Shown here: piece after piece, positions 4,180 to 63,795 of the stretch
How positions within the stretch are numbered: the stretch's first letter is position 1
Layout: each line of letters opens with the position of its first letter
Origin: Eledone cirrhosa
Lineage: Eukaryota
Length of the DNA: 64,000 nt
Assembly (NCBI GenBank): GCA_964016885.1
Contig: OZ024742.1
Coordinates: 334,862,001-334,926,000, forward strand
Reading direction: 5' to 3'
Notes under the pieces: generated by a model
What the model was told of the DNA's origin: nothing
The model's database searches: none
Seen by the model: only the letters and a program-made list of their open reading frames with translations
Made by a program: the position numbers and the translations under genes

Positions 4180-4312
4180 AAAGTGTGGTAAGAAACCAGG
4201 TGGGCCATAACGCACCAGAGTACTCGATACTTAGGATAGTAGAATGAGTGATAGGATCTAGCTGTCGAAACGACCGGAGCTCAGCCGTCGAGGACCGGAC
4301 TCTTTTCCTATA
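4180..4312. mobile_element. Dispersed repeat of the GAAAC-hairpin-GTC family; inverted partner at 4820-4880
   Basis: ggatctagctgtcgaaacgaccggagctcagccgtc also occurs at 28600-28815 and 48400-48592; the other half matches 46300-46400. Confidence 0.7.
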
Positions 4313-4324
4313 TATATATATAAA

Positions 4325-4795
4325 AAGAAATACACAGATACATGCGAATACATACATATACATGCATATACACACATATATCCCTGAATTTGTGTGGTGC
4401 CAACCTTAACCGTTGTTGCTCTATGATTAATAGGGACAAAATAATATGAATAAATTAGATTGACTCAATATCAGAGCTATATAGTACATTATAAAGAAAG
4501 AAGAAACATTAGACATAAATAAAAATATATATATATACCCAATACTCTTCAACATCCTCGACTGCGCAGTTTCGTGGCTACTATGCAAAAACATTACATC
4601 ATAGAGATGCAGTATTTTTGTGAGGTTTGCCAACTTATCAAGAGAATACCTCATTAAAGTTTCAAAACACGTCCGCAAGGCGTGAGAGAGAATCCCGGTA
4701 AGGCGGAGGGAGAACTTAAGACGTGATACAGCGGTCAAAAAACAGAGTTAAGCCTCTTACAACCAAGAGAAAAATACCGACGTGTTTTGAAACTT
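4325..4795 (-). mobile_element. Diverged single copy of the 592-bp hammerhead-bearing family (see 53763-55836)
   Basis: Collinear similarity to the 592-bp unit (cacagatacatgcg ... ggtgccaac ... acttatcaagag ... aaggcggaggg ... taagcctctta). Confidence 0.8.
4555..4646 (-). ncRNA. Type I hammerhead ribozyme, U3-A8 variant core
   Basis: Minus strand ttctc-TTGATAA-gttggc...gccac-GAAAC-tgcgca-GTC-gagga; palindromic stem III ACTGCGCAGT. Confidence 0.8.
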
Positions 4796-4984
4796 TCTTT
4801 ATATATATATATATGTTTATATATAGGAAAAGAGTCAGGGCCCCGACGGCTGAGCTCCGGTCGTTTCGACAGCTAGATACTCTATATAAAGGATCGATCG
4901 ACTTTCGTCAAATCGGACCGAGGAAACAATGTTTTCGTCGGTCTTTCCAGTTGCTAATACTATCTATCGGTCGCAACTCCAGGC

Positions 4985-5106
4985 AGAAGGAGCAACGTGA
5001 AATAAAGTGTCTTGCTCAAGGACATAACGCATCGCCCGGTCCAGGAATCGAACTCACAATCTCAAGATTGTGAATCCAATTCTCTAACCACTCAGCCACA
5101 CGCCTT
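4985..5106 (-). mobile_element. tRNA-derived SINE with CORE-like domain (5' part)
   Basis: Minus strand A box tggctgagtgg, B box gagttcgattcc, then tgtccttgagcaagacacttt. Confidence 0.8.
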
Positions 5107-24331: not shown

Positions 24332-25475
<1,144 letters not shown>

Positions 25476-25489
25476 ATATATATATATAT

Positions 25490-26482
25490 ATAAACAAGGT
25501 TTAGTAAATAATGAAAAAGTTTCAAAATAAATTTTAAAAAATTGACTTTACCTACTATAGTTACCTTTACCGATCGGTTTCGAATCCCAAAAATAAAACG
25601 TAGGCCATACGGCCTTCGTTGCAAAGAGAGATTCTCGTCAGAAGGTTCTTTTCATTCAAAGAATATAAAATTCCTGAATTTAAATCACAAACTAGCGCTA
25701 TCAAAGACTGTTCCTGGGATGAGAGTGGATGATGTAGAACAGGTTTATCAAGGGCCGTAGTAAAGATAGAGGCAAAAGGAGGTAGGTCGAACTAGCCACC
25801 GCGATTCGAAACCGATCGGTAAAGGTAACTATAGTAGGTAAAGTCAATTTTTTAAAATTTATTTTGAAACTTTTTCATTATTTACTAAACCTTGTTTATA
25901 TTTGTTCTGGCTCGTTAATTTATTAACCCGCCATTGAACCACACTGGCACTTGGTTGGACAATACATGCGTACCTTGGCGCCTTGTGCGTGAAAGGACGT
26001 ATTTCATATTACTACTACCTCCACATACGTTGAGAACAAACCGGGTCATTCCGACTGCTGCTGATAACAGCGGTGGCTAGTTCGACCTACCTCCTTTTGC
26101 CTCTATCTTTACTACGGCCCTTGATAAACCTGTTCTACATCATCCACTCTCATCCCAGGAACAGTCTTTGATAGCGCTAGTTTGTGATTTAAATTCAGGA
26201 ATTTTATATTCTTTGAATGAAAAGAACCTTCTGACGAGAATCTCTCTTTGCAACGAAGGCCGTATGGCCTACGTTTTATTTTTGGGATTCGAAACCGATC
26301 GGTAAAGGTAACTATAGTAGGTAAAGTCAATTTTTTAAAATTTATTTTGAAACTTTTTCATTATTTACTAAACCTTGTTTATATTTGTTCTGGCTCGTTA
26401 ATTTATTAACCCGCCATTGAACCACACTGGCACTTGGTTGGACAATACATGCGTACCTTGGCGCCTTGTGCGTGAAAGGACG

Positions 26483-26490
<8 letters not shown>
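25490..26490 (+). mobile_element. Retrozyme-like element: 1.4 tandem copies of a 483-bp unit (25803-26490) preceded by an inverted segment (25490-25802)
   Basis: gattcgaaaccgatcggt at 25803 and 26286; identical 72-aa ORFs on opposite strands; (TA)n on both sides. Confidence 0.88.
26226..26309 (+). ncRNA. Type I hammerhead ribozyme, canonical core (mirror copy on minus strand at 25563-25646)
   Basis: acctt-CTGACGA-gaatc...gattc-GAAAC-cgatcg-GTA-aaggt; all three stems pair. Confidence 0.92.
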
Positions 26491-26554
<64 letters not shown>

Positions 26555-27141: not shown

Positions 27142-28551
27142 TTGAATCATAGACAACCTATGTATTTCTGGGGGTACCTAGTATCCCTGGACATATTAAC
27201 TTCAATCTCTTTCTCCGTCCGTTGAGAACAATTCTGTTGCTCTATTTAGCTGCTATTTTTTTAGTAGTAATTGTAGACAGCAAGTCTTTGATTTTCCCGC
27301 TTTTACTTCGGTCCAGTTTACATACGGGTCACTTTTACGACCTTTCAGACCTTTATTTGCTGGCAGGAGGTTATATATTTTGTCGTTCCTGGGACGTTTA
27401 GCCCTAGGAAGAGAAAATGCTTCCTGATGAGCTTTGGTTTTCCATCATAAATCCATCGGATTTATGAGGTTTTACAAAGCGAAACTGATCAGTAAGGGCC
27501 ACTAGGAGAGGTAAATATTTATATTATATTTTTTAATGTATTTTTAGAAAATTGATTGAATTTTACTTGTTCTGCTTATCTTAATATTAAAGTTCTGGTG
27601 TATCAAATTAATACCATTGAACAACCTTGAATCATAGACAACCTATGTATTTCTGGGGGTACCTAGTATCCCTGGACATATTAACTTCAATCTCTTTCTC
27701 CGTCCGTTGAGAACAATTCTGTTGCTCTATTTAGCTGCTATTTTTTTAGTAGTAATTGTAGACAGCAAGTCTTTGATTTTCCCGCTTTTACTTCGGTCCA
27801 GTTTACATACGGGTCACTTTTACGACCTTTCAGACCTTTATTTGCTGGCAGGAGGTTATATATTTTGTCGTTCCTGGGACGTTTAGCCCTAGGAAGAGAA
27901 AATGCTTCCTGATGAGCTTTGGTTTTCCATCATAAATCCATCGGATTTATGAGGTTTTACAAAGCGAAACTGATCAGTAAGGGCCACTAGGAGAGGTAAA
28001 TATTTATATTATATTTTTTAATGTATTTTTAGAAAATTGATTGAATTTTACTTGTTCTGCTTATCTTAATATTAAAGTTCTGGTGTATCAAATTAATACC
28101 ATTGAACAACCTTGAATCATAGACAACCTATGTATTTCTGGGGGTACCTAGTATCCCTGGACATATTAACTTCAATCTCTTTCTCCGTCCGTTGAGAACA
28201 ATTCTGTTGCTCTATTTAGCTGCTATTTTTTTAGTAGTAATTGTAGACAGCAAGTCTTTGATTTTCCCGCTTTTACTTCGGTCCAGTTTACATACGGGTC
28301 ACTTTTACGACCTTTCAGACCTTTATTTGCTGGCAGGAGGTTATATATTTTGTCGTTCCTGGGACGTTTAGCCCTAGGAAGAGAAAATGCTTCTCTGATG
28401 AGCTTTGGTTTTCCATCATAAATCCATCGGATTTATGAGGTTTTACAAAGCGAAACTGATCAGTAAGGGCCACTAGGAGAGGTAAATATTTATATTATAT
28501 TTTTTAATGTATTTTTAGAAAATTGATTGAATTTTACTTGTTCTGCTTATC

Positions 28552-28558
<7 letters not shown>
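27142..28558 (+). mobile_element. Retrozyme-like tandem array: about 2.9 near-identical copies of a 485-bp unit
   Basis: ttgaatcatagacaacc at 27142, 27627 and 28112; TA tracts at both ends. Confidence 0.92.
27419..27499 (+). ncRNA. Type I hammerhead ribozyme (repeated at 27904-27984 and 28389-28470)
   Basis: CTGATGA-gctttg...caaagc-GAAAC-tgatca-GTA-agggc; internal 10-bp hairpin tcataaatcc/ggatttatga in loop II. Confidence 0.88.
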
Positions 28559-28604: not shown

Positions 28605-28815
28605 TATGGTGTGATAAAACCCAGCTAGACCATAACCCACCAGAGTCCTCGATTATTGGGGTAGTAGGGTCAGTAATATGAAAAAATTCAGCACCCCGAC
28701 GGCTGAGCCCCAGCCGTTTCGAAAGCTAGATCCGAACTCATTTACATGCTCACCAGTTCGGATCTAGCTGTCGAAACGGCTGGGGCTCACCCGTCATAGT
28801 CCTGGATCTTTTCAT
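28600..28815. mobile_element. GAAAC-hairpin-GTC family repeat with fold-back end
   Basis: gacggctgagccccagccgtttcgaaagctagatccgaact ... agttcggatctagctgtcgaaacggctggggctcacccgtc. Confidence 0.75.
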
Positions 28816-29332
28816 AAATATATATATTTGATTTCGATCCACTGAATAGGGTGACGTCACAAAACCCTGCAACTCAATGGCAGCCATTGATGTTGACCTG
28901 TCCTTCTTTTTGCATATGTGTTGCTCTTGTTCAGAAAGTTTCCAGTGCAAGGTCTTTTACGCATAAAAGCGTTATATGCACTGGCGTCATATGATTTAAA
29001 CATGTTTTACGTGTGTTGCTGAAATGGATGGTCGTATCCGAAAAAAGTTTTTTCTTTCGATGCTAAAAAATCGCGTTCGTACCACTATGTGTGAGAAAAG
29101 ACTTGAAAACCGAGTAAAATACATATATTTGTTATATTTACATGGCTATATATTTAAAAACTCTAAATGTATATACATTTATAGACACATGTATGCAGCC
29201 ATAGCTATTTCTTTTTCTTTACTGTATATACGGATTTAACTTTGCCAAATAATATATATATATATATATGCCTACATACTTACATACATACACACACACA
29301 CACAAACACACAAACAGACACACACACACACC

Positions 29333-30487: not shown

Positions 30488-33400
30488 CTACAGGCTTATA
30501 AACAGAGAAGGCCCAATCACTCGGGCCATTTTCGCTTCATTCACCCACCTTTCAGTAAATTTACTGGGGTGCAGTGCCTCTCTCTCCACCCTGATTCTCC
30601 TTCTAAAGTGATACTTAAAGAAGGGAATCAATTGTTGTCCGGAGAGAAAGGCATCTGTCCTCAGTCCTCTCAACCTCGTCCACCATATAACTTCTTTCAC
30701 CATAGCCACCGTACAGAGGAAAACCGCCTCTCTTTCGTTTTTGAAAGAGTCTGGCGGTTTGATCCTTACTATGAACTCGGCAGTCAACTGTATTTGTCCC
30801 ATACGCGACAGCAGTTGTTCTGCATAGTTCCACAGGTCGCTTACGCCCGGGCAGTGTACAATTGCGTGCAGAACTGTTTTAATGTCCTGCGCACATCTTG
30901 GACACGTCCTCTTGGAAGGATCCCTGCCAGGGCGTCCGTGCCTGTAGATCTTGTCACGAACCGGTAGAGCTCCTCAGTAGCACTGCCAGGCAAGGGACCT
31001 CTGGAAGTTGTCCATAGGTCCCGGGCGGAAAGTCCTACCAAACATACTGGTGAGCTCATCGTCTTCGACGCCCAGAGTCTCTCCGAGCACGTCGTCGCCC
31101 TTGTAACGTACAATCCCTCTATAGAATGTCGAAGTGGAGTCTCCACTGATTGCTGCGCCCGCTTGCCAGAGGACTGTGAGCGCCTGAGCGCATTCAATGT
31201 GCCAGGCGCCCATCGTTTTCGGTCTTTTCTTCACCCAGGACTGCAGCTCCGTTAGCGAGACGAGCTGTGGGAAAGCCTGTCTCACAAACGGTGCACACAC
31301 CGGTTGGGGGTCGGTGACGAATACCTGGAGATGCCGCAGCCTCAGCGCATGTTTGCGCATCATCAGCCACGGCATTCCCAGCCCTCCGTTGGAAGGGTGC
31401 TGACAGCAGACGGATCTCCTCACCAGCGGAGCCTGCTTCTTCCACAGAAACTGGAAGAGCATGCGTTCCATCTTGGCGAGGTGTTCACGGGGACAAGGCA
31501 CGACAGTCAAGCGGTAGTAGATGACGGACGCTATGAAAGTGTTCGCCACCTCCGCTCGACCTTTCAAGGACAGTTTGCACTCTGCCCATTTCTGAGTGAG
31601 TGCAAACACCTTGGCCGTGACCTCGTTCCAGTTTTTCTCCACCTGGAGGTCTGGACCGAACCAGACCCCGAGCAATTTCACCGGTCCGGCCGTCCAGCGT
31701 CCAACGACGCTGTCGGATGTCATCGGTTTGCCTCTCCACGTACCGAGTTGCAAACCGACAGACTTGTCTGGGTTTAGTTTTGCTCCCGTCAGCGTTTCGT
31801 ATTCTTTCAGTATGTTGCCGATCACCCCGATTTCCGAGGTGCTCGACACCATTACTGTCACGTCGTCGGCATAAGCCGACGCCGCTTTGCGCAGTCCCGG
31901 TTCTAGGGGGATGCCCTTCAACAGCTCCAATTTCCGCAGTAGTGGCTCTAGAGTCAATACATACAGAATGGAGGAGAGAGGGCATCTCTGTCGAATGGAA
32001 CGCGTGATTGCGAACGGCTCCGATAGGTAGCCGTTCACCTTGACCCTCGAGCAGATGCTGGTGTGCATCGCCTCGATCCATCCTCTGAACACGGGACCGA
32101 AACCGGCCGCCTTGAGAACCGCTTCCAAGTATCGATGGTCGACCCTATCGAATGCCTTAGACTGATCCAAGTTGATCAGAGCCCCACCGAAGCCGGGTTT
32201 ACTACCCACCCTCTCTATGATGTATCGCATGAGGTAGAGGTTGTCGTGTATGGACCGGGTCGGGATTGCACACGTTTGCGCTTTCCCTACCAGGTTCTCG
32301 ACGACAAGCGCCAACCTCGTCGCTAGCACCTTGGCCAAAATCTTTAACTCTGTGTTGAGCAGAGTTATGGGCCTGAAGTTGTTAATTTCGTCCCCCTTGT
32401 TCTCGTCTTTCCTGATCAGCGTTACTACGCCCTTGCCTGCAGAACTGGGAATTCTCCCGTTCTGCTGCCAATTGCAGTAGACGGCTTCGAGGACGCCAGA
32501 GAACAAGTCCGGCATGCCTATGTAAAATTCGTAGGGTAGACCATCTAGACCGGGTGACTTGCGTTTCCCGCAGCGGCCCAGAGCGTCCCGTATCTCAGTG
32601 TCCGTGATCGGTCTTTCGCAGAACTCGGCGTCCGTGTTCGAGAGACGCGGCAGGCCGTCGAGGTATGAACTAAAGTCCATTGCCCCGTTCGGCTCACCGT
32701 CGTTCTGCTCAAACAGTCGCGCAAAGTGCCGCTGAAAGGCCGCGCACATTTGCTTGGGGTCAAGTAGCACGCGTCCGTTTTGGTCTTTCAAAGACCGAAT
32801 CGTGGACTTGTTGCCACTTTTTGCCTCCGCCACTCGGGCCCAGCTGACAGCTTTCGCTCCTTCGTTTCCTAGAGCACGTGTTTTGCTTCTGACCACGCAG
32901 CCTTCGTGTTTCGCATCGAAGAACTGGTCCAGTGCCGTTCTCGACGCTAACACTCTAGCCGCGTTGCCACTTCTAAGTGCCTCCTCTACCTTGGCTACTA
33001 GTTCTCTTTCTATTCTGTTTTTCTCTAAGGCTAACTCTCTGCTATACCCTATCGATTCTATTCTAATTGCTTTCTTGAGAGAGTACCACCATCTATTGTT
33101 GACGATGGCTTCCGTTAACTGTTGCTTGACTAGTTTACTTATCCGTTCACTGTAAGCTTTACGTGCCGGCAACGACACGTTCAGCTTCCAGTATCCGGGA
33201 CCCTGTCTATGTATTCTATCACGGTTGACTAAGCAGACGACTAACTTGTGATCTGAATAGGCAACCATGTGCATTCGTGGACAGCTTAACATATCCTTGT
33301 CCCTTTCTCTAATGAAGAACCTATCTAAATACGATCTAGATGTCCCACTGCGGTTTACCCACGTCCACTGTGGTGCAGTCGGGAAATCCAGTCGATACCT

Positions 33401-33934
33401 ATCGGCCAGTTGGAATTGGCCGATTAAAGTTTTGAGGCTGTTGCACCCCGCTCTACTGGGACATGCTCCCACATAGTCCCATCGTGCATCTAGGATACCA
33501 TTCCAGTCCCCCACTAAAAGTAAGGAGCGAGACGTTCCCAGAAAAGACTCTAGATGCTTAAAGAAGTCTGGCCGTGATTGCGATTGCCCGGTCGGGGCAT
33601 AAACGGCCACCAGTCTGAAGGCTCCACCTCCGATACTGTTCACGTCTAGGACTACCAGTCTACCCTCCGGGTCCAAGTGTACTTGCTGTACTCCGACGTC
33701 CAGGTTCTTCCGAAACATAACAGCCACTCCACCTCCACCTCCTGGCTGACAGAGAGATGCGTAGATCTCAAAGTCGTCGAAGATGGGGGTTAGTTGCTGC
33801 CTGTTGTGGATTCTGGACTCGGTGATGGCTATCACATCCATACTGTGTGACCTAAGGTCGTTTAAAAGTTGGCCCTGTTTCCAGGGCATCCCTAGGCCAC
33901 GCACATTCACGGTTCCAACTCGTAAACCAGCCAT
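30488..33934 (-). pseudogene. Tx1 ORF2 (AP endonuclease, reverse transcriptase, C-terminal zinc finger); open for 986 aa (33934-30974), then a nonsense codon and frameshift
   Basis: NVRGL, GDWN, YLDRF, SDHK, GYWKLN, KSPGLDGLP, FRPITLLN, DQSKAFDRV, RQRCPLS, YADD; TGA where copy 2 has an Arg codon. Confidence 0.93.
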
Positions 33935-33975
33935 GTTGGTGAAGAAAAGTTGGAGAAAAAGGACGAAAGGTGCAC

Positions 33976-35851
33976 TTACCTTTTCGTTTGCTGGAGATCG
34001 GGTTGTTCAATCTCCATTTGGGTGCTGGATGGGGTGTTGGGTGGGGCGGGGAAACCTTTCAACAGGACGCGGTTGATGGGTTTGTGGCAGGGGTTGCCCA
34101 CGTCCTGTGAAAATTTAATTTTCAGGTCTTTATAGGTTTCCATAGAAACCCTTATAAGTTTAAGGTGTGGAGACGATTCTGCCTTGACGAAAGTTTTGCC
34201 CTCCGTCTCCACCTTGGGGTTTGGGGAGATGACCTCCATCAAACTCTTGTTGTTTGTGTTGATGTATGCGTATTGTTGTTTGTGTTTTTGTTGTATTGTT
34301 TTAGTTTGTTGTTCATCCGGGAGTTTTCTTTTTATGGTGGGTGCTTGTGTTTGGGGTGGTGTTGGTGCTGGTTTTGCTGATAGGGGATGTTTGACTGTGG
34401 TGTTGTTTGTGTTGTTGTTTGTGTGTGTGGTTGTGTGTTGGTGTTGGTGATTGGAGTTTTGGGGGTTTTGTGGTGTCTCTTTTTTTGTTTTTTGGATTTC
34501 CGCGGTTCTCCCTCTTCTTCACTTAAAGAAGGAGAAGCAGCTTCATCCGTCGATGAATAATCATCGTCAGGTGTGTGGGGTAAGGGTATGTTGTGTGGTG
34601 GTGGTGGTGTTTCGGTATGTGTGTTTGTGGTAGTGTTTGATGGAGTGGGATGGAGTGGGGATGCGTTCTTCAGGGGTGTTGTCTCTGTTTTTTCTGTTGT
34701 TGTTGGTTGAGTGTCTGTTTGTTTTGGTGTGGTTGCTCGTTTCGTCTGTCGTTGTACTTGTGGTGGTGGTGGTGGTTGTTTTGGTGTTGGTGTTGGTAAT
34801 AGCGTTTTTTTATGATGTTGCTGTTGTGTGTTTGTGGACAAGAGGCTTTTAGGTGAGATGTGCTACCACAGCGAAAGCAGTGAAATTTTCTTCCTTCTAC
34901 CGAAATGTTTATTTTGTTTTTATTATCAATAACGACTCTTTCGGGTATTTTGGAGATTCTCTCCGGTTTCATTTGCAACAGAATCTCCAAATCGGTGCCC
35001 GCCCACCTTTGTCGAATGGATTTTCGTATCGAAAGTATTATGTCTGTTTCTGGCTCTACGAAGCCAGCCAAGATCCACCAGATGTTAATGCTTGGAGGTA
35101 TGTTTTTTATTTTTATTTTTTGTGTCCTTTTCCCCATGTATGTAGGGAAAAAGGTGTATGCTTTTGACACTATTGGTGTCACAGAGTTTTTTTGGGCCAG
35201 TGCCTCGCTTTTAAACAGTACGGAAACACTTCTGTACTGTTTTCCTCGCTGGAGAAAATCGACATTTCCTAGAATCTCCTTGAAAGAATCTTCTATATCT
35301 GACTGATTAACAAATGTCGGTTTTCTTGACGAATTTGACACAGTCCTAAAAGTGACTGATCGGCGGTTTGTGTCTTCCTTTATTTCAAGGGGTGAGTTAA
35401 TTCTAAACCCACCTCTTTCTTCGAAAGTTACAAATTTTCTCCCTTGCTGGAGCATATCTCTTGCGTTGGAGATATCAAGATTTATAAAATCTTGTTTCTT
35501 GTTGACTGTGTCAGCGAAAGACATTTTCTTTTTTTGTGTGATGTTGTTGTTAATAATGATGTTATCGTTGTTGGAAATTTTATGTGTAGATGTATCTGTA
35601 GAGTTGTTGATGTCTTTTTCATGTGTATGTATATCAATGGGTTTTTTTGCCGTGTTTTCCCGTGTGTTATTGTCATTTTTCTCCGCTTCGGCGGTAGAAA
35701 TTGTAACATTTTCAAATGTTGATATATTTTTTTCTTTTGTGACAGTATCTATGGCAACGTCCATAGCAGCAGAAGCAGATATAACGTTAATATCTGCCTC
35801 TTTCTCTCTCTTTTCTCTATTAACGTTCTCCAGCGTTCTAGTGTTGCTCAA
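33976..35851 (-). pseudogene. Tx1 ORF1 (nucleic-acid-binding protein with CCHC knuckle), frameshifted
   Basis: CFRCGSTSHLKASC in ORF 35851-34670; continues in 34841-34332 and 34242-33976, the latter homologous to copy 2 ORF 40044-39499. Confidence 0.85.
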
Positions 35852-36067
35852 GTTTTTTTACTTTGTAAAATTTGATATTTTAAAACAAACTTTTAAATAA
35901 AATTTTCGCCCCTACAGGGGCGAAAAATGGGATTACCACCCAGCTGACAATTCAGCTTGGGGGTTAATCTACAAAGTGTTGTATTTTTTTCAAACAATTA
36001 GATCGGTTTTTTGCATAGAAATTAACAAAAAACTTACCGGCGATATTCCACACGTTAGACAGAAAGA

Positions 36068-48399: not shown

Positions 48400-48585
48400 A
48401 ATTCAGGACCCCGATGGGTGAGCTCCGGCTGTTTCAATAGCTAGATCCGAACAGTTAGGATCTAACTGTTGAAACGGCCGGAGCTCAACCGTCAGGTTAC
48501 TGAATTGTTCATATTATCCACTCTACTATCCCAAGCATCGCGTATTCTGGTGAGTAATGGTCTAACTAGTAATCACCGCCTCCAT

Positions 48586-53759: not shown

Positions 53760-53762
53760 GTT

Positions 53763-55836
53763 ATATATTTAGAAACACACAGATACATGCGGACACACAC
53801 ATATATACATGAATGCATCCACACCCAACTGTGAGTTAAGGGTGCCAACTTCACCGATGTTGCTCAATGAATGACTGGGACAGACCAATTCAGTTTGAAC
53901 CAGACTGAACCAGTATCAGAGTTAAAAATACATTATGAAGAGAGAAGAAACATTTAGATATAATTAGTAATAAAATGTATCATACCTAAACTGTTCCTAA
54001 ATTCCTCGACTACGTAGTTTCGTGGCATAAACAAAAACAATATATCAAAGATATAGAGTCCTTGCGAGGTCTGCCGACTTATCAAGAGGATACCTCATTT
54101 TACTAGTCCCAAGAACGCGTCTACACGGCGTGAGAAAGAATCCCAAAAGGCGGAGGGGGAGATAGTCACGCGATATAACGGTCGAGAAACAGAGCTAAGC
54201 CTCTTATAACCACGAAGAAAATACCACGGAGGCGGAGGGGGGTATTCATATCGAGGCCGTAGAAGAGGTAGTGAAGAAGGCGAGAAGTATGAGTAATGGA
54301 AGCTTTCCAGTTGTCCCCACACCTCAAAGATTGCTCGACCAGAGGGAGTTATTAATATATTTAGAAACACACAGATACATGCGGACACACACATATATAC
54401 ATGAATGCATCCACACCCAACTGTGAGTTAAGGGTGCCAACTTCACCGATGTTGCTCAATGAATGACTGGGACAGACCAATTCAGTTTGAACCAGACTGA
54501 ACCAGTATCAGAGTTAAAAATACATTATGAAGAGAGAAGAAACATTTAGATATAATTAGTAATAAAATGTATCATACCTAAACTGTTCCTAAATTCCTCG
54601 ACTACGTAGTTTCGTGGCATAAACAAAAACAATATATCAAAGATATAGAGTCCTTGCGAGGTCTGCCGACTTATCAAGAGGATACGCTCATTTTACTAGT
54701 CCCAAGAACGCGTCTACATGACGTGAGAAAGAATCCCAAAAGGCGGAGGGGGAGATAGTCACGCGATATAACGGTCGAGAAACAGAGCTAAGCCTCTTAT
54801 AACCACGAAGAAAATACCACGGAGGCGGAGGGGGGTATTCATATCGAGGCCGTAGAAGAGGTAGTGAAGAAGGCGAGAAGTATGAGTAATGGAAGCTTTC
54901 CAGTTGTCCCCACACCTCAAAGATTGCTCGACCAGAGGGAGTTATTAATATATTTAGAAACACACAGATACATGCGGACACACACATATATACATGAATG
55001 CATCCACACCCAACTGTGAGTTAAGGGTGCCAACTTCACCGATGTTGCTCAATGAATGACTGGGACAGACCAATTCAGTTTGAACCAGACTGAACCAGTA
55101 TCAGAGTTAAAAATACATTATGAAGAGAGAAGAAACATTTAGATATAATTAGTAATAAAATGTATCATACCTAAACTGTTCCTAAATTCCTCGACTACAT
55201 TTTATTACTAATTATATCTAAATGTTTCTCTCTCTTCATAATGTATTTTTAACTCTGATACTGGTTCAGTCTGGTTCAAACTGAATTGGTCTGTCCCAGT
55301 CATTCATTGAGCAACATCGGTGAAGTTGGCACCCTTAACTCACAGTTGGGTGTGGATGCATTCATGTATATATGTGTGTGTCCGCATGTATCTGTGTGTT
55401 TCTAAATATATTAATAACTCCCTCTGGTCGAGCAATCTTTGAGGTGTGGGGACAACTGGAAAGCTTCCATTACTCATACTTCTCGCCTTCTTCACTACCT
55501 CTTCTACGGCCTCGATATGAATACCCCCTCCGCCTCCGTGGTATTTTCTTCGTGGTTATAAGAGGCTTAGCTCTGTTTCTCGACCGTTATATCGCGTGAC
55601 TATCTCCCCCTCCGCCTTTTGGGATTCTTTCTCACGTCGTGTAGACGCGTTCTTGGGACTAGTAAAATGAGGTATCCTCTTGATAAGTCGGCAGACCTCG
55701 CAAGGACTCTATATCTTTGATATATTGTTTTTGTTTATGCCACGAAACTACGTAGTCGAGGAATTTAGGAACAGTTTAGGTATGATACATTTTATTACTA
55801 ATTATATCTAAATGTTTCTTCTCTCTTCATAATGTA
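53763..55836 (-). mobile_element. Retrozyme-like element: about 2.4 tandem copies of a 592-bp unit (53763-55198) plus an inverted copy of about 1.1 units (55197-55836)
   Basis: agaaacacacagatacatgcgg at 53771, 54363 and 54956; reverse complement follows; (TA)n on both flanks. Confidence 0.92.
55675..55762 (+). ncRNA. Type I hammerhead ribozyme, U3-A8 variant core (minus-strand copies at 54003-54090 and 54595-54682)
   Basis: tcctc-TTGATAA-gtcggca...tgccac-GAAAC-tacgta-GTC-gagga; palindromic ACTACGTAGT stem III. Confidence 0.88.
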
Positions 55837-55861
55837 TATATATAGTTATATGTATATATAC

Positions 55862-56660: not shown

Positions 56661-57392
56661 TTTCTTTATTTGCCACAAGGGGGCACAAGAAAGGGGACAT
56701 TAGAAAACGAGACGGCGGGGGTTTTACATAAGAAATGTGTAAACTTAATAACATTAATAAATTAAAATGATTTTAATTGTTATTTTATTTTAATATATAG
56801 TTAAAATAAAAAACAATTGAAATCCCCAGTAGTGGGGAACGTTACTGCACGGTTGTTTATATAGAACAACCCTCAACACCAGGAGCACGTTTTGTAGGTG
56901 TTCCCGTCTTCCCTCTGTTGTCTTCCTCAACATACAGTTTTATATACAGAGACGGCCCATTCACTCGAGCGATTTTTGCCACATTCACCCACCTTTCAGC
57001 GAATTTACTGGGAGGTGATGCAGCACCTCTCTCTCCACTCTCACCTTCCTTCTGAAATGGTATTTAAAGAAGAGGATGAGTTGTTGTCTGGAGAGGAAGG
57101 TGCTTCCCCTTAGTCTTTGCAACCTCATCCACCATATTAACTCTTTCGCCATAGCCACCAGACAGAGGAAAACCGCCTTTCCTTCATTCTTTAATGAAGG
57201 CGGTGGGGTGATCCTCACGATGGACTCGGCTGACAACGGGATGTGTCCCACACGTGACAGTAGCTGGTTGACATAATTCCACATGTCGGTCCTCCCTGGG
57301 CACTGAACAATTGCGTGCAGAACGGTTTCAATGTCCTGCTCACATCTTAGACGGGTCCTTTTGTCAGGATCCCTGCCAAGGTGTCCGTGCCT
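56661..57392 (-). mobile_element. Tx1-type 3' fragment, copy 4 (third subfamily)
   Basis: Encodes RCEQDIETVLHAIVQC...FFKYHFRRKVRVERE; 3' end gtggcaAATAAAgaaa; 5' junction in (GATA)n. Confidence 0.9.
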
Positions 57393-59931: not shown

Positions 59932-59965
59932 CTTCTGAAGAAGGACTAGCGTCCGAAACGTCAAG
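59932..59965 (+). ncRNA. Minimal type I hammerhead ribozyme (Penelope pLTR-like)
   Basis: ctt-CTGAAGA-a-ggac(tagc)gtcc-GAAAC-GTC-aag. Confidence 0.78.
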
Positions 59966-63679: not shown

Positions 63680-63795
63680 GAGAAGGCCTACGGCATAATG
63701 GTTAGAGTGCTGTACACACGATTGTAGTTTCGATTACTAGGCCGTGCAGTGCGTTGTGTCCTTGATCAAAGTACTTTATTTCACCTTGCCTCTTC
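63680..63795 (+). mobile_element. Degraded CORE-like tRNA SINE
   Basis: ggcataatggttagag...gtttcgattac...gcgttgtgtccttgatcaaagtactttatttcac. Confidence 0.7.

Follow-up and report, generated by a model that had tools for sequence, protein, structure and literature searches.

Is the hammerhead-like motif near 4.6 kb on the minus strand of this Eledone cirrhosa DNA a ribozyme whose structure has been under selection, and how would a motif with a variant core, a palindromic stem III and a long loop II cut RNA? The window referred to below is the whole stretch of 64,000 nucleotides. At a probability of about 0.7, we read the motif as a type I U3-A8 hammerhead within a 592-bp, likely non-autonomous Penelope-derived retrozyme, in which two motifs paired via the palindrome would cut the RNA and a pseudoknot likely joins stems I and II.

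Architecture of the motif and its host repeats

Minus-strand positions 4653-4555 have the sequence of a type I hammerhead, with a predicted cut at 4560/4559. Read 5' to 3' from 4653, the order is UGAGGU, A, UUCUC, UUGAUAA, GU(U)GGC and a 50-nt insert, after which GCCAC, GAA, the palindrome ACUGCGCAGU, C17 (4560) and GAGGA complete the minus-strand hammerhead. The initial annotation had delimited the motif as 4555..4646, which leaves out 4653-4648, one strand of the predicted pseudoknot.

4648..4653, minus strand: UGAGGU, predicted 5' strand of the pseudoknot, 1 nt 5' of stem I
4642..4646, minus strand: UUCUC, 5' strand of stem I, partner of 4559-4555
4635..4641, minus strand: core box 1, UUGAUAA, the U3-A8 form of CUGANGA, same in both family A lineages
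4629..4634, minus strand: GU(U)GGC, 5' strand of stem II with a single bulged base
4621..4626, minus strand: ACCUCA, 5' side of the stem II internal loop, predicted 3' strand of the pseudoknot
4586..4620, minus strand: hairpin IIb, extending stem II, with 14 pairs, one mismatch and a 5-nt loop; present in the MFE structure
4574..4578, minus strand: GCCAC, 3' strand of stem II
4561..4573, minus strand: GAA and the 10-nt palindrome ACUGCGCAGU (A15.1 to U16.1), stem III
4555..4560, minus strand: C17 and GAGGA, the 3' strand of stem I; predicted cleavage 3' of 4560

Cleavage is placed 3' of 4560 because the hammerhead consensus puts it there. The type I core is present as UUGAUAA, GAAA and GUC with a U3-A8 pair, and all three helices can be drawn: stem I with 5 bp, stem II with 5 bp and a bulge, and stem III with 3 bp in a monomer or 10 bp in a dimer. 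The five stem II pairs are the same in both family A lineages and the bulge alone varies, while one stem I pair occurs as U-G, C-G and U-A.

Nine motifs in the window, and none in any of 20 block shuffles, combine box 1, GAAA, a palindrome and stems I and II; the complete motif is not a product of chance. Four of the nine belong to family A (U3-A8), two to family B and three to family C (both C3-G8), and four different perfect 10-nt palindromes occur among these long-loop motifs. Rfam returned three matches up to E 10 on 4400-4800, with no hammerhead among them, which is expected given the 50-nt loop II and the variant core, and an Rfam match does not define the class. On the full window, the Rfam matches listed (150 of 244) were microsatellite-driven and of miRNA type. 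A type III reading via a small GAGG-UAU-CCUC hairpin was rejected, as the preceding UH triplet is absent.

The three families are distributed in the window as follows:

4317..4778, minus strand: solo family A copy, 5'-truncated, about 460 of 592 bp, located by blastn
53760..55198, minus strand: head-to-tail family A array of two 592/593-bp units and a 251-bp part
54085-54008 and 54677-54600, minus strand: family A hammerheads of the array
55196..55837, plus strand: inverted continuation of family A, which ends in (TA)n and has its hammerhead at 55680-55757
25488..26492, both orientations: inverted and partial tandem insertion of family B, with palindrome ACCGAUCGGU and the long stem II layout
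25641-25568 (minus strand) and 26231-26304 (plus strand): C3-G8 hammerheads of family B
27142..28558, plus strand: 2.9 tandem family C units of 485 bp, with palindrome ACUGAUCAGU and the long stem II layout
27424, 27909 and 28395, plus strand: C3-G8 hammerheads of family C

The family A unit has 592 bp, a GC content of 42% and no recognisable coding frame. Its positions 3-466 match the solo copy at 73.6% in blastn, and the RNA-sense 3' end of that copy adjoins (TA)n exactly where the 54-kb array does. The region 53760-55837 comprises 2.4 tandem units and the inverted continuation, flanked by (TA)n tracts, and two consecutive complete units, each with a complete type I hammerhead, lie at 53760-54944, a tandem arrangement as in non-LTR retrozymes. 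Core, helices, palindromes, tandem and inverted layout and (TA)n joins can all be read directly from the DNA, and non-coding copies in tandem and inverted orientation, with (TA)n at their joins, resemble retrozymes and the terminal repeats of Penelope elements. Neither an autonomous partner nor a Penelope ORF linked to the unit was found, with no Pfam family matched by eight short frames of families A-C, so a Penelope origin of family A, which we consider likely, rests on layout and ribozyme type. A coding explanation of the repeats was rejected, given the lack of Pfam matches in the frames tested, and a 74-aa frame of family B had no Atlas match.

Family A patterns had no match in metagenome contigs and none in viral contigs. 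Generic long-loop patterns matched 74 + 12 viral loci and 15 metagenome loci, which were used solely as chance controls; palindrome, stem I and stem II occurred together in 0 of 59 distinct viral and 0 of 15 metagenome loci.

Several details of these repeats were observed in passing. In family C, the units at 27424 and 27909 have one base fewer at the 2.1 position and a C-A mismatch beside the cut site, and the unit at 28395 has a U-A pair there. The family A inversion junction (55196-55198) falls on the midpoint of the stem III palindrome with a 3-nt overlap, and that of family B (25803) lies about 19 nt before the cut site; possibly, reverse transcriptase switched template at the paired ribozyme. 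A near-perfect 426-bp inverted repeat at 24432-24857 has one hammerhead-like motif per arm (24764-24808, plus strand; 24525-24481, minus strand) with a C3-G8 core, a short loop II, the palindrome AUAUAUAU and a G-U at the base of stem II, and no pseudoknot was seen in these motifs. At 59935-59962 (plus strand) lies a classic minimal hammerhead (CUGAAGA, 4-bp stem II, GAAAC GUC, 3-bp stem I), which is the sole match of the minimal descriptor in the window and has no upstream open frame.

Conservation between lineages and variation in public runs

Window positions 4561-4570 read ACTGCGCAGT, and the equivalent positions 54009-54018, 54601-54610 and 55747-55756 read ACTACGTAGT; on the ribozyme strand, stem III is thus ACUGCGCAGU in the 4.6-kb copy and ACUACGUAGU in the three full 54-55 kb copies. 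The initial annotation saw here two compensatory changes that keep the palindrome. The palindrome is indeed kept, but by two transitions that swap a single pair from G-C to A-U, not by two events. As the 54-55 kb units are 99.5-100% identical to each other, the swap is one event and the comparison contains two independent lineages only. In a neutral simulation at the flank rate (400,000 runs), a perfect palindrome was retained in 6.4% of runs, and in 2.1% of those with any palindrome change, and the swap taken alone is weak evidence.

The claim of selection on RNA structure finds better support than the single swap in core conservation against the flanks, in the four different palindromes of the window, in the matched variant depths of a public run, in the simulations and in the cofolding described below. 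Identity between the lineages is 77/95 in the motif and 242/358 (0.676) in the flanks. UUGAUAA, GAAAC..GUC and stem I (UUCUC or UCCUC with GAGGA) are kept as originally described, and the core is identical at 13 of 13 positions against a flank identity of 67.6% (P 0.006); it does not vary as freely as the flanks, which supports the view that the U3-A8 core is inherited rather than decayed. Multiplying the simulated rates gives about 5e-6 for the joint retention of core, stems I and II and palindrome. For 13 named pairs, pairing across families A-C reaches 97.4%, and eight of these pairs have a double-sided change (2 of 500 shuffles), in a test that ignores relatedness among sequences representing about four lineages.

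The 592-bp unit was present in 20 of 24 listed runs, none of them recorded as RNA, which says nothing for or against expression. Family A is very abundant in run X1, where 1069 contigs matched the unit, as compared with 4 in X13, 1 in X2 and no reads in the raw-read run X22. The 592-bp period is visible in X2 and X13 too, and near-identical units occur in runs labelled with 17 organisms, at trace depth in X2 and X13. Presence in the runs of other organisms is as likely to reflect diet or contamination as transfer, and the low-depth runs X2 and X13, like the other listed organisms, were counted neither as hosts nor as showing horizontal transfer.

Four runs were compared with 4380-4800 at 82% likeness, and the variants considered here are the 40 listed of 66, which are unphased. 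None of the 39 positions with listed variants falls within the 35 positions of core, stem II and pseudoknot (P 0.024); core box 1 contains none of the 40 listed variants, and the 12 pseudoknot positions none of those listed. Both listed stem I variants keep the pair. Five of the seven variants listed in hairpin IIb keep or create a pair, and two (4593, 4617) break one on their own; when run X1 was set against the 592-bp unit, the two listed changes inside the motif were both in this hairpin. Stem III variants in X1 have matched depths at 4564/4567 (413/398), the same pair as in the lineage swap, and at the central pair 4565/4566 (327/394). The central two bases of the palindrome are unpairable in a monomer hairpin, and a linked change there would thus point to an intermolecular duplex, while part of the central-pair variation could be CpG decay.

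Predicted pseudoknot and dimer folding

Loop II had been described as diverging along with the flanks, which does not hold, as it includes a hairpin with covariation and a strand able to pair with 4653-4648. Compared with the 54-kb lineage, hairpin IIb has one double-sided change (C-G to U-A), four pair-keeping single changes and one broken pair. UGAGGU pairs with ACCUCA in six of six Watson-Crick pairs (4653-4648 with 4626-4621), and RNAalifold selects this helix unprompted. The 54-kb lineage reads ACCUCG, changing a U-A pair of the pseudoknot to U-G, and an insertion disrupts the helix in one of the three full 54-55 kb copies. Families B and C share this layout but have different sequences (AAAGA/UCUUU and GAAAAU/GUUUUC), and complementarity at the equal place is thus found in all three long-loop families. 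These predictions suggest that the stem II arm likely forms a pseudoknot with the bases 5' of stem I.

A dimer-type ribozyme in which the UGAGGU/ACCUCA helix is instead a competing fold, closing core box 1 and damping cleavage, is unlikely. RNAalifold, which is unable to draw pseudoknots, does put this helix in place of stems I and II, and its predicted stability reaches -7 kcal/mol in family A. However, constrained folds leave the loop strand free beside intact stems I and II (unpaired in three of four sequences), the stability of the helix in families B and C (-1.2 and -1.9 kcal/mol) does not suffice to displace the stems, and position and length match those of stem I/stem II pseudoknots that raise rates elsewhere (PMC3088659).

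That the pseudoknot is a chance complementarity of short purine and pyrimidine runs, and the motif otherwise a usual dimer-type Penelope hammerhead whose long loop II is structured, is quite improbable. The pseudoknot idea arose from inspecting family A, and the shuffle statistics are modest, with P 0.069 in family B and 0.13 in family C. Among the phage-contig pattern matches used as a chance control, complementarity of at least 5 bp occurs in 5 of 59 and of 4 bp in 10 of 59; family C scores 4 rather than 5 if its stem II is drawn one pair longer, and the upstream strand of family B also pairs over 5 bp with the family C loop. This explanation is opposed by the shuffle P of 0.006-0.013 in family A, by the lack of listed variants in the pseudoknot and by families B and C, which were not used to form the idea and both have the helix in place, with a joint chance of about 0.007-0.014 given the control rates of 5/59 and 10/59.

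The palindromic stem III had also been taken as a sign of dimer-type cleavage, an association already published for Penelope-element hammerheads (PMC4209133) and one with which cofolding predictions agree. In a monomer, stem III has 3 bp and a 4-nt loop at a predicted +1.5 kcal/mol in three of four sequences, including the 4.6-kb copy, and the monomer MFE structure differs from the hammerhead fold in all four. The stem III self-duplex is predicted at -12.9 to -16.9 kcal/mol (-16.9 in the 4.6-kb copy), and mixing the two family A palindromes gives a predicted heteroduplex of -8.2 kcal/mol, as compared with -12.9 and -16.9 kcal/mol. Unconstrained cofolding of two copies predicts a double hammerhead with a 10-bp intermolecular stem III and a swapped stem I, favoured over two monomers by 11.9 and 13.7 kcal/mol, and a palindromic, unstable helix III would thus pair between copies. 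The double-hammerhead fold is, like the pseudoknot, a prediction. Compared with shuffles, unit RNAs of families A and C have z-scores of -5.3 and -6.1 on the ribozyme strand and -0.4 and -0.9 on the other strand, and six of eight control windows are near zero while two are also low (z -3.5 and -4.6). The ribozyme-strand RNA of the 592-bp unit (z -5.3) is 62% paired, that is, self-paired as in retrozymes.

By analogy with published relatives, tandem units would be transcribed through. Two motifs in this RNA would pair by the 10-nt palindrome and cut the repeat RNA, with the stem II arm pseudoknot likely keeping stems I and II together. As in those relatives, cleavage after GUC would release a unit-length RNA, which may be circularised and could be copied in trans by a Penelope reverse transcriptase/endonuclease. 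The solo copy at 4.3-4.8 kb, with no neighbouring copy in cis, is probably inert, and selection acted on its source lineage.

Palindromes can be corrected by template switching. It is very unlikely that the motif cuts as a monomer (a 3-bp stem III aided by the pseudoknot) or needs no cutting, its palindrome being kept for RNA dimerisation in reverse transcription or by DNA-level correction: 3 bp and a tetraloop exceed most metazoan hammerheads, both examined inversion junctions fall in the ribozyme 3' half and an Anolis Penelope element inserted in vitro without needing cleavage (PMC11167929), but the monomer stem III is predicted to be unstable, core bases outside the palindrome are conserved equally with it and the folding signal is strand-specific.

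Relation to published ribozymes

The mechanism preferred here, cleavage by paired motifs, is largely known, as the U3-A8 core, palindromic stem III and dimer cleavage have been published for Penelope-like ribozymes, and dimer cleavage is reviewed in PMC6765202. Hammerheads of Penelope-like elements have a palindromic helix III, a dimer model and low in vitro activity; U3-A8 cores occur in Cercyon elements of S. mansoni (about 1,300 matches), 10-nt palindromes in Aedes and Saccoglossus and a bulged helix II in D. virilis (PMC4209133). The motif shares with them the type I topology, short stem I, G10.1-C11.1, palindromic helix III and U3-A8 core. It differs from those described in the available text of PMC4209133 in its loop II, which spans 37-50 nt and comprises an internal loop and a hairpin as well as a predicted pseudoknot, and from the elements described there in that the short frames tested revealed no linked RT/GIY-YIG ORF. 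The descriptor of Cervera and De la Pena 2014 allows a loop 2 of 3-10 nt, and its listed representatives are equally short (PMC4209133), so it would miss the long-loop families of the window. This suggests that counts of animal hammerheads by short-loop descriptors miss whole families.

Retrozymes are tandem non-coding units with a proposed origin from Penelope terminal repeats (PMC7229834; bioRxiv 10.64898/2026.07.22.740005). Family A resembles metazoan non-LTR retrozymes in its tandem non-coding units, one type I hammerhead per unit, GC content, self-paired RNA and occurrence as monomers or short multimers. Its 592-nt unit is larger than invertebrate circRNAs of 170-400 nt and within the 51-972 bp range of the preprint (10.64898/2026.07.22.740005), and its inverted segments resemble Penelope insertions, unlike retrozymes, from which the ribozyme periphery also differs. 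Penelope-like elements have themselves been described as occurring in tandem and inverted copies, with a bias towards microsatellites (bioRxiv 10.1101/2021.04.23.441226).

Pseudoknots joining stems I and II were predicted in about 40% of the set of Perreault et al. 2011 and raise rates (PMC3088659), and the same study describes natural U3-A8 covariation in hammerheads. The predicted helix is like types I-III of that study in being a Watson-Crick helix between stems I and II. The published motifs are mostly monomeric, of bacterial or phage origin, and use a terminal loop, whereas here the strand belongs to the internal loop of a long stem II and is combined with a dimer-type palindrome. No long stem II with such a pseudoknot in a dimer-type motif was found in the literature searched, including the available text of PMC13725137 and PMC10085705, while long-loop variants may already be in print; the available text of an Octopus vulgaris repeat paper (PMC13282606) does not mention ribozymes. 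The novel part thus appears to be the structured stem II extension and the predicted pseudoknot. On balance, we lean towards a subclass characterised by obligate dimer cleavage via a 10-bp palindromic stem III and by a Watson-Crick pseudoknot that links the 5' extension of stem I with an internal loop in a long stem II; no fewer than three abundant retrozyme families of this genome would use it, and a descriptor limited to a 10-nt loop II would not see it.

Penelope-type hammerheads have been described as cutting poorly in vitro (PMC4209133), and what the motif adds is the periphery. Eight of nine Xenopus retrozyme dimers failed to cut (bioRxiv 10.64898/2026.07.22.740005), and one Penelope hammerhead is protein-assisted and dispensable for insertion in vitro (PMC11167929). 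If the reading is correct, a ribozyme combining dimer and pseudoknot would cut fast, unlike the slow minimal Penelope motifs, and would make it possible to test directly which function the cut has in the elements.

Other repeats were observed in the window. The (TA)n that contains the solo family A copy is flanked by one inverted pair of a 60-bp repeat (4253-4312 and 4822-4881), and this repeat also occurs at 28676-28816 and 48403-48496. A non-LTR retrotransposon lies at 30974-34006 (minus strand), with a 1010-aa frame containing endonuclease/exonuclease/phosphatase and RVT_1 domains; upstream of it, at 34670-35857 (minus strand), is a 395-aa frame with a CCHC-like motif, and fragments of decayed non-LTR copies extend to 39260 and occur near 57000. 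A short repeat with a tRNA-like B-box motif, which we take to be probably a SINE fragment, is found at 4986-5105 and 63720-63795.
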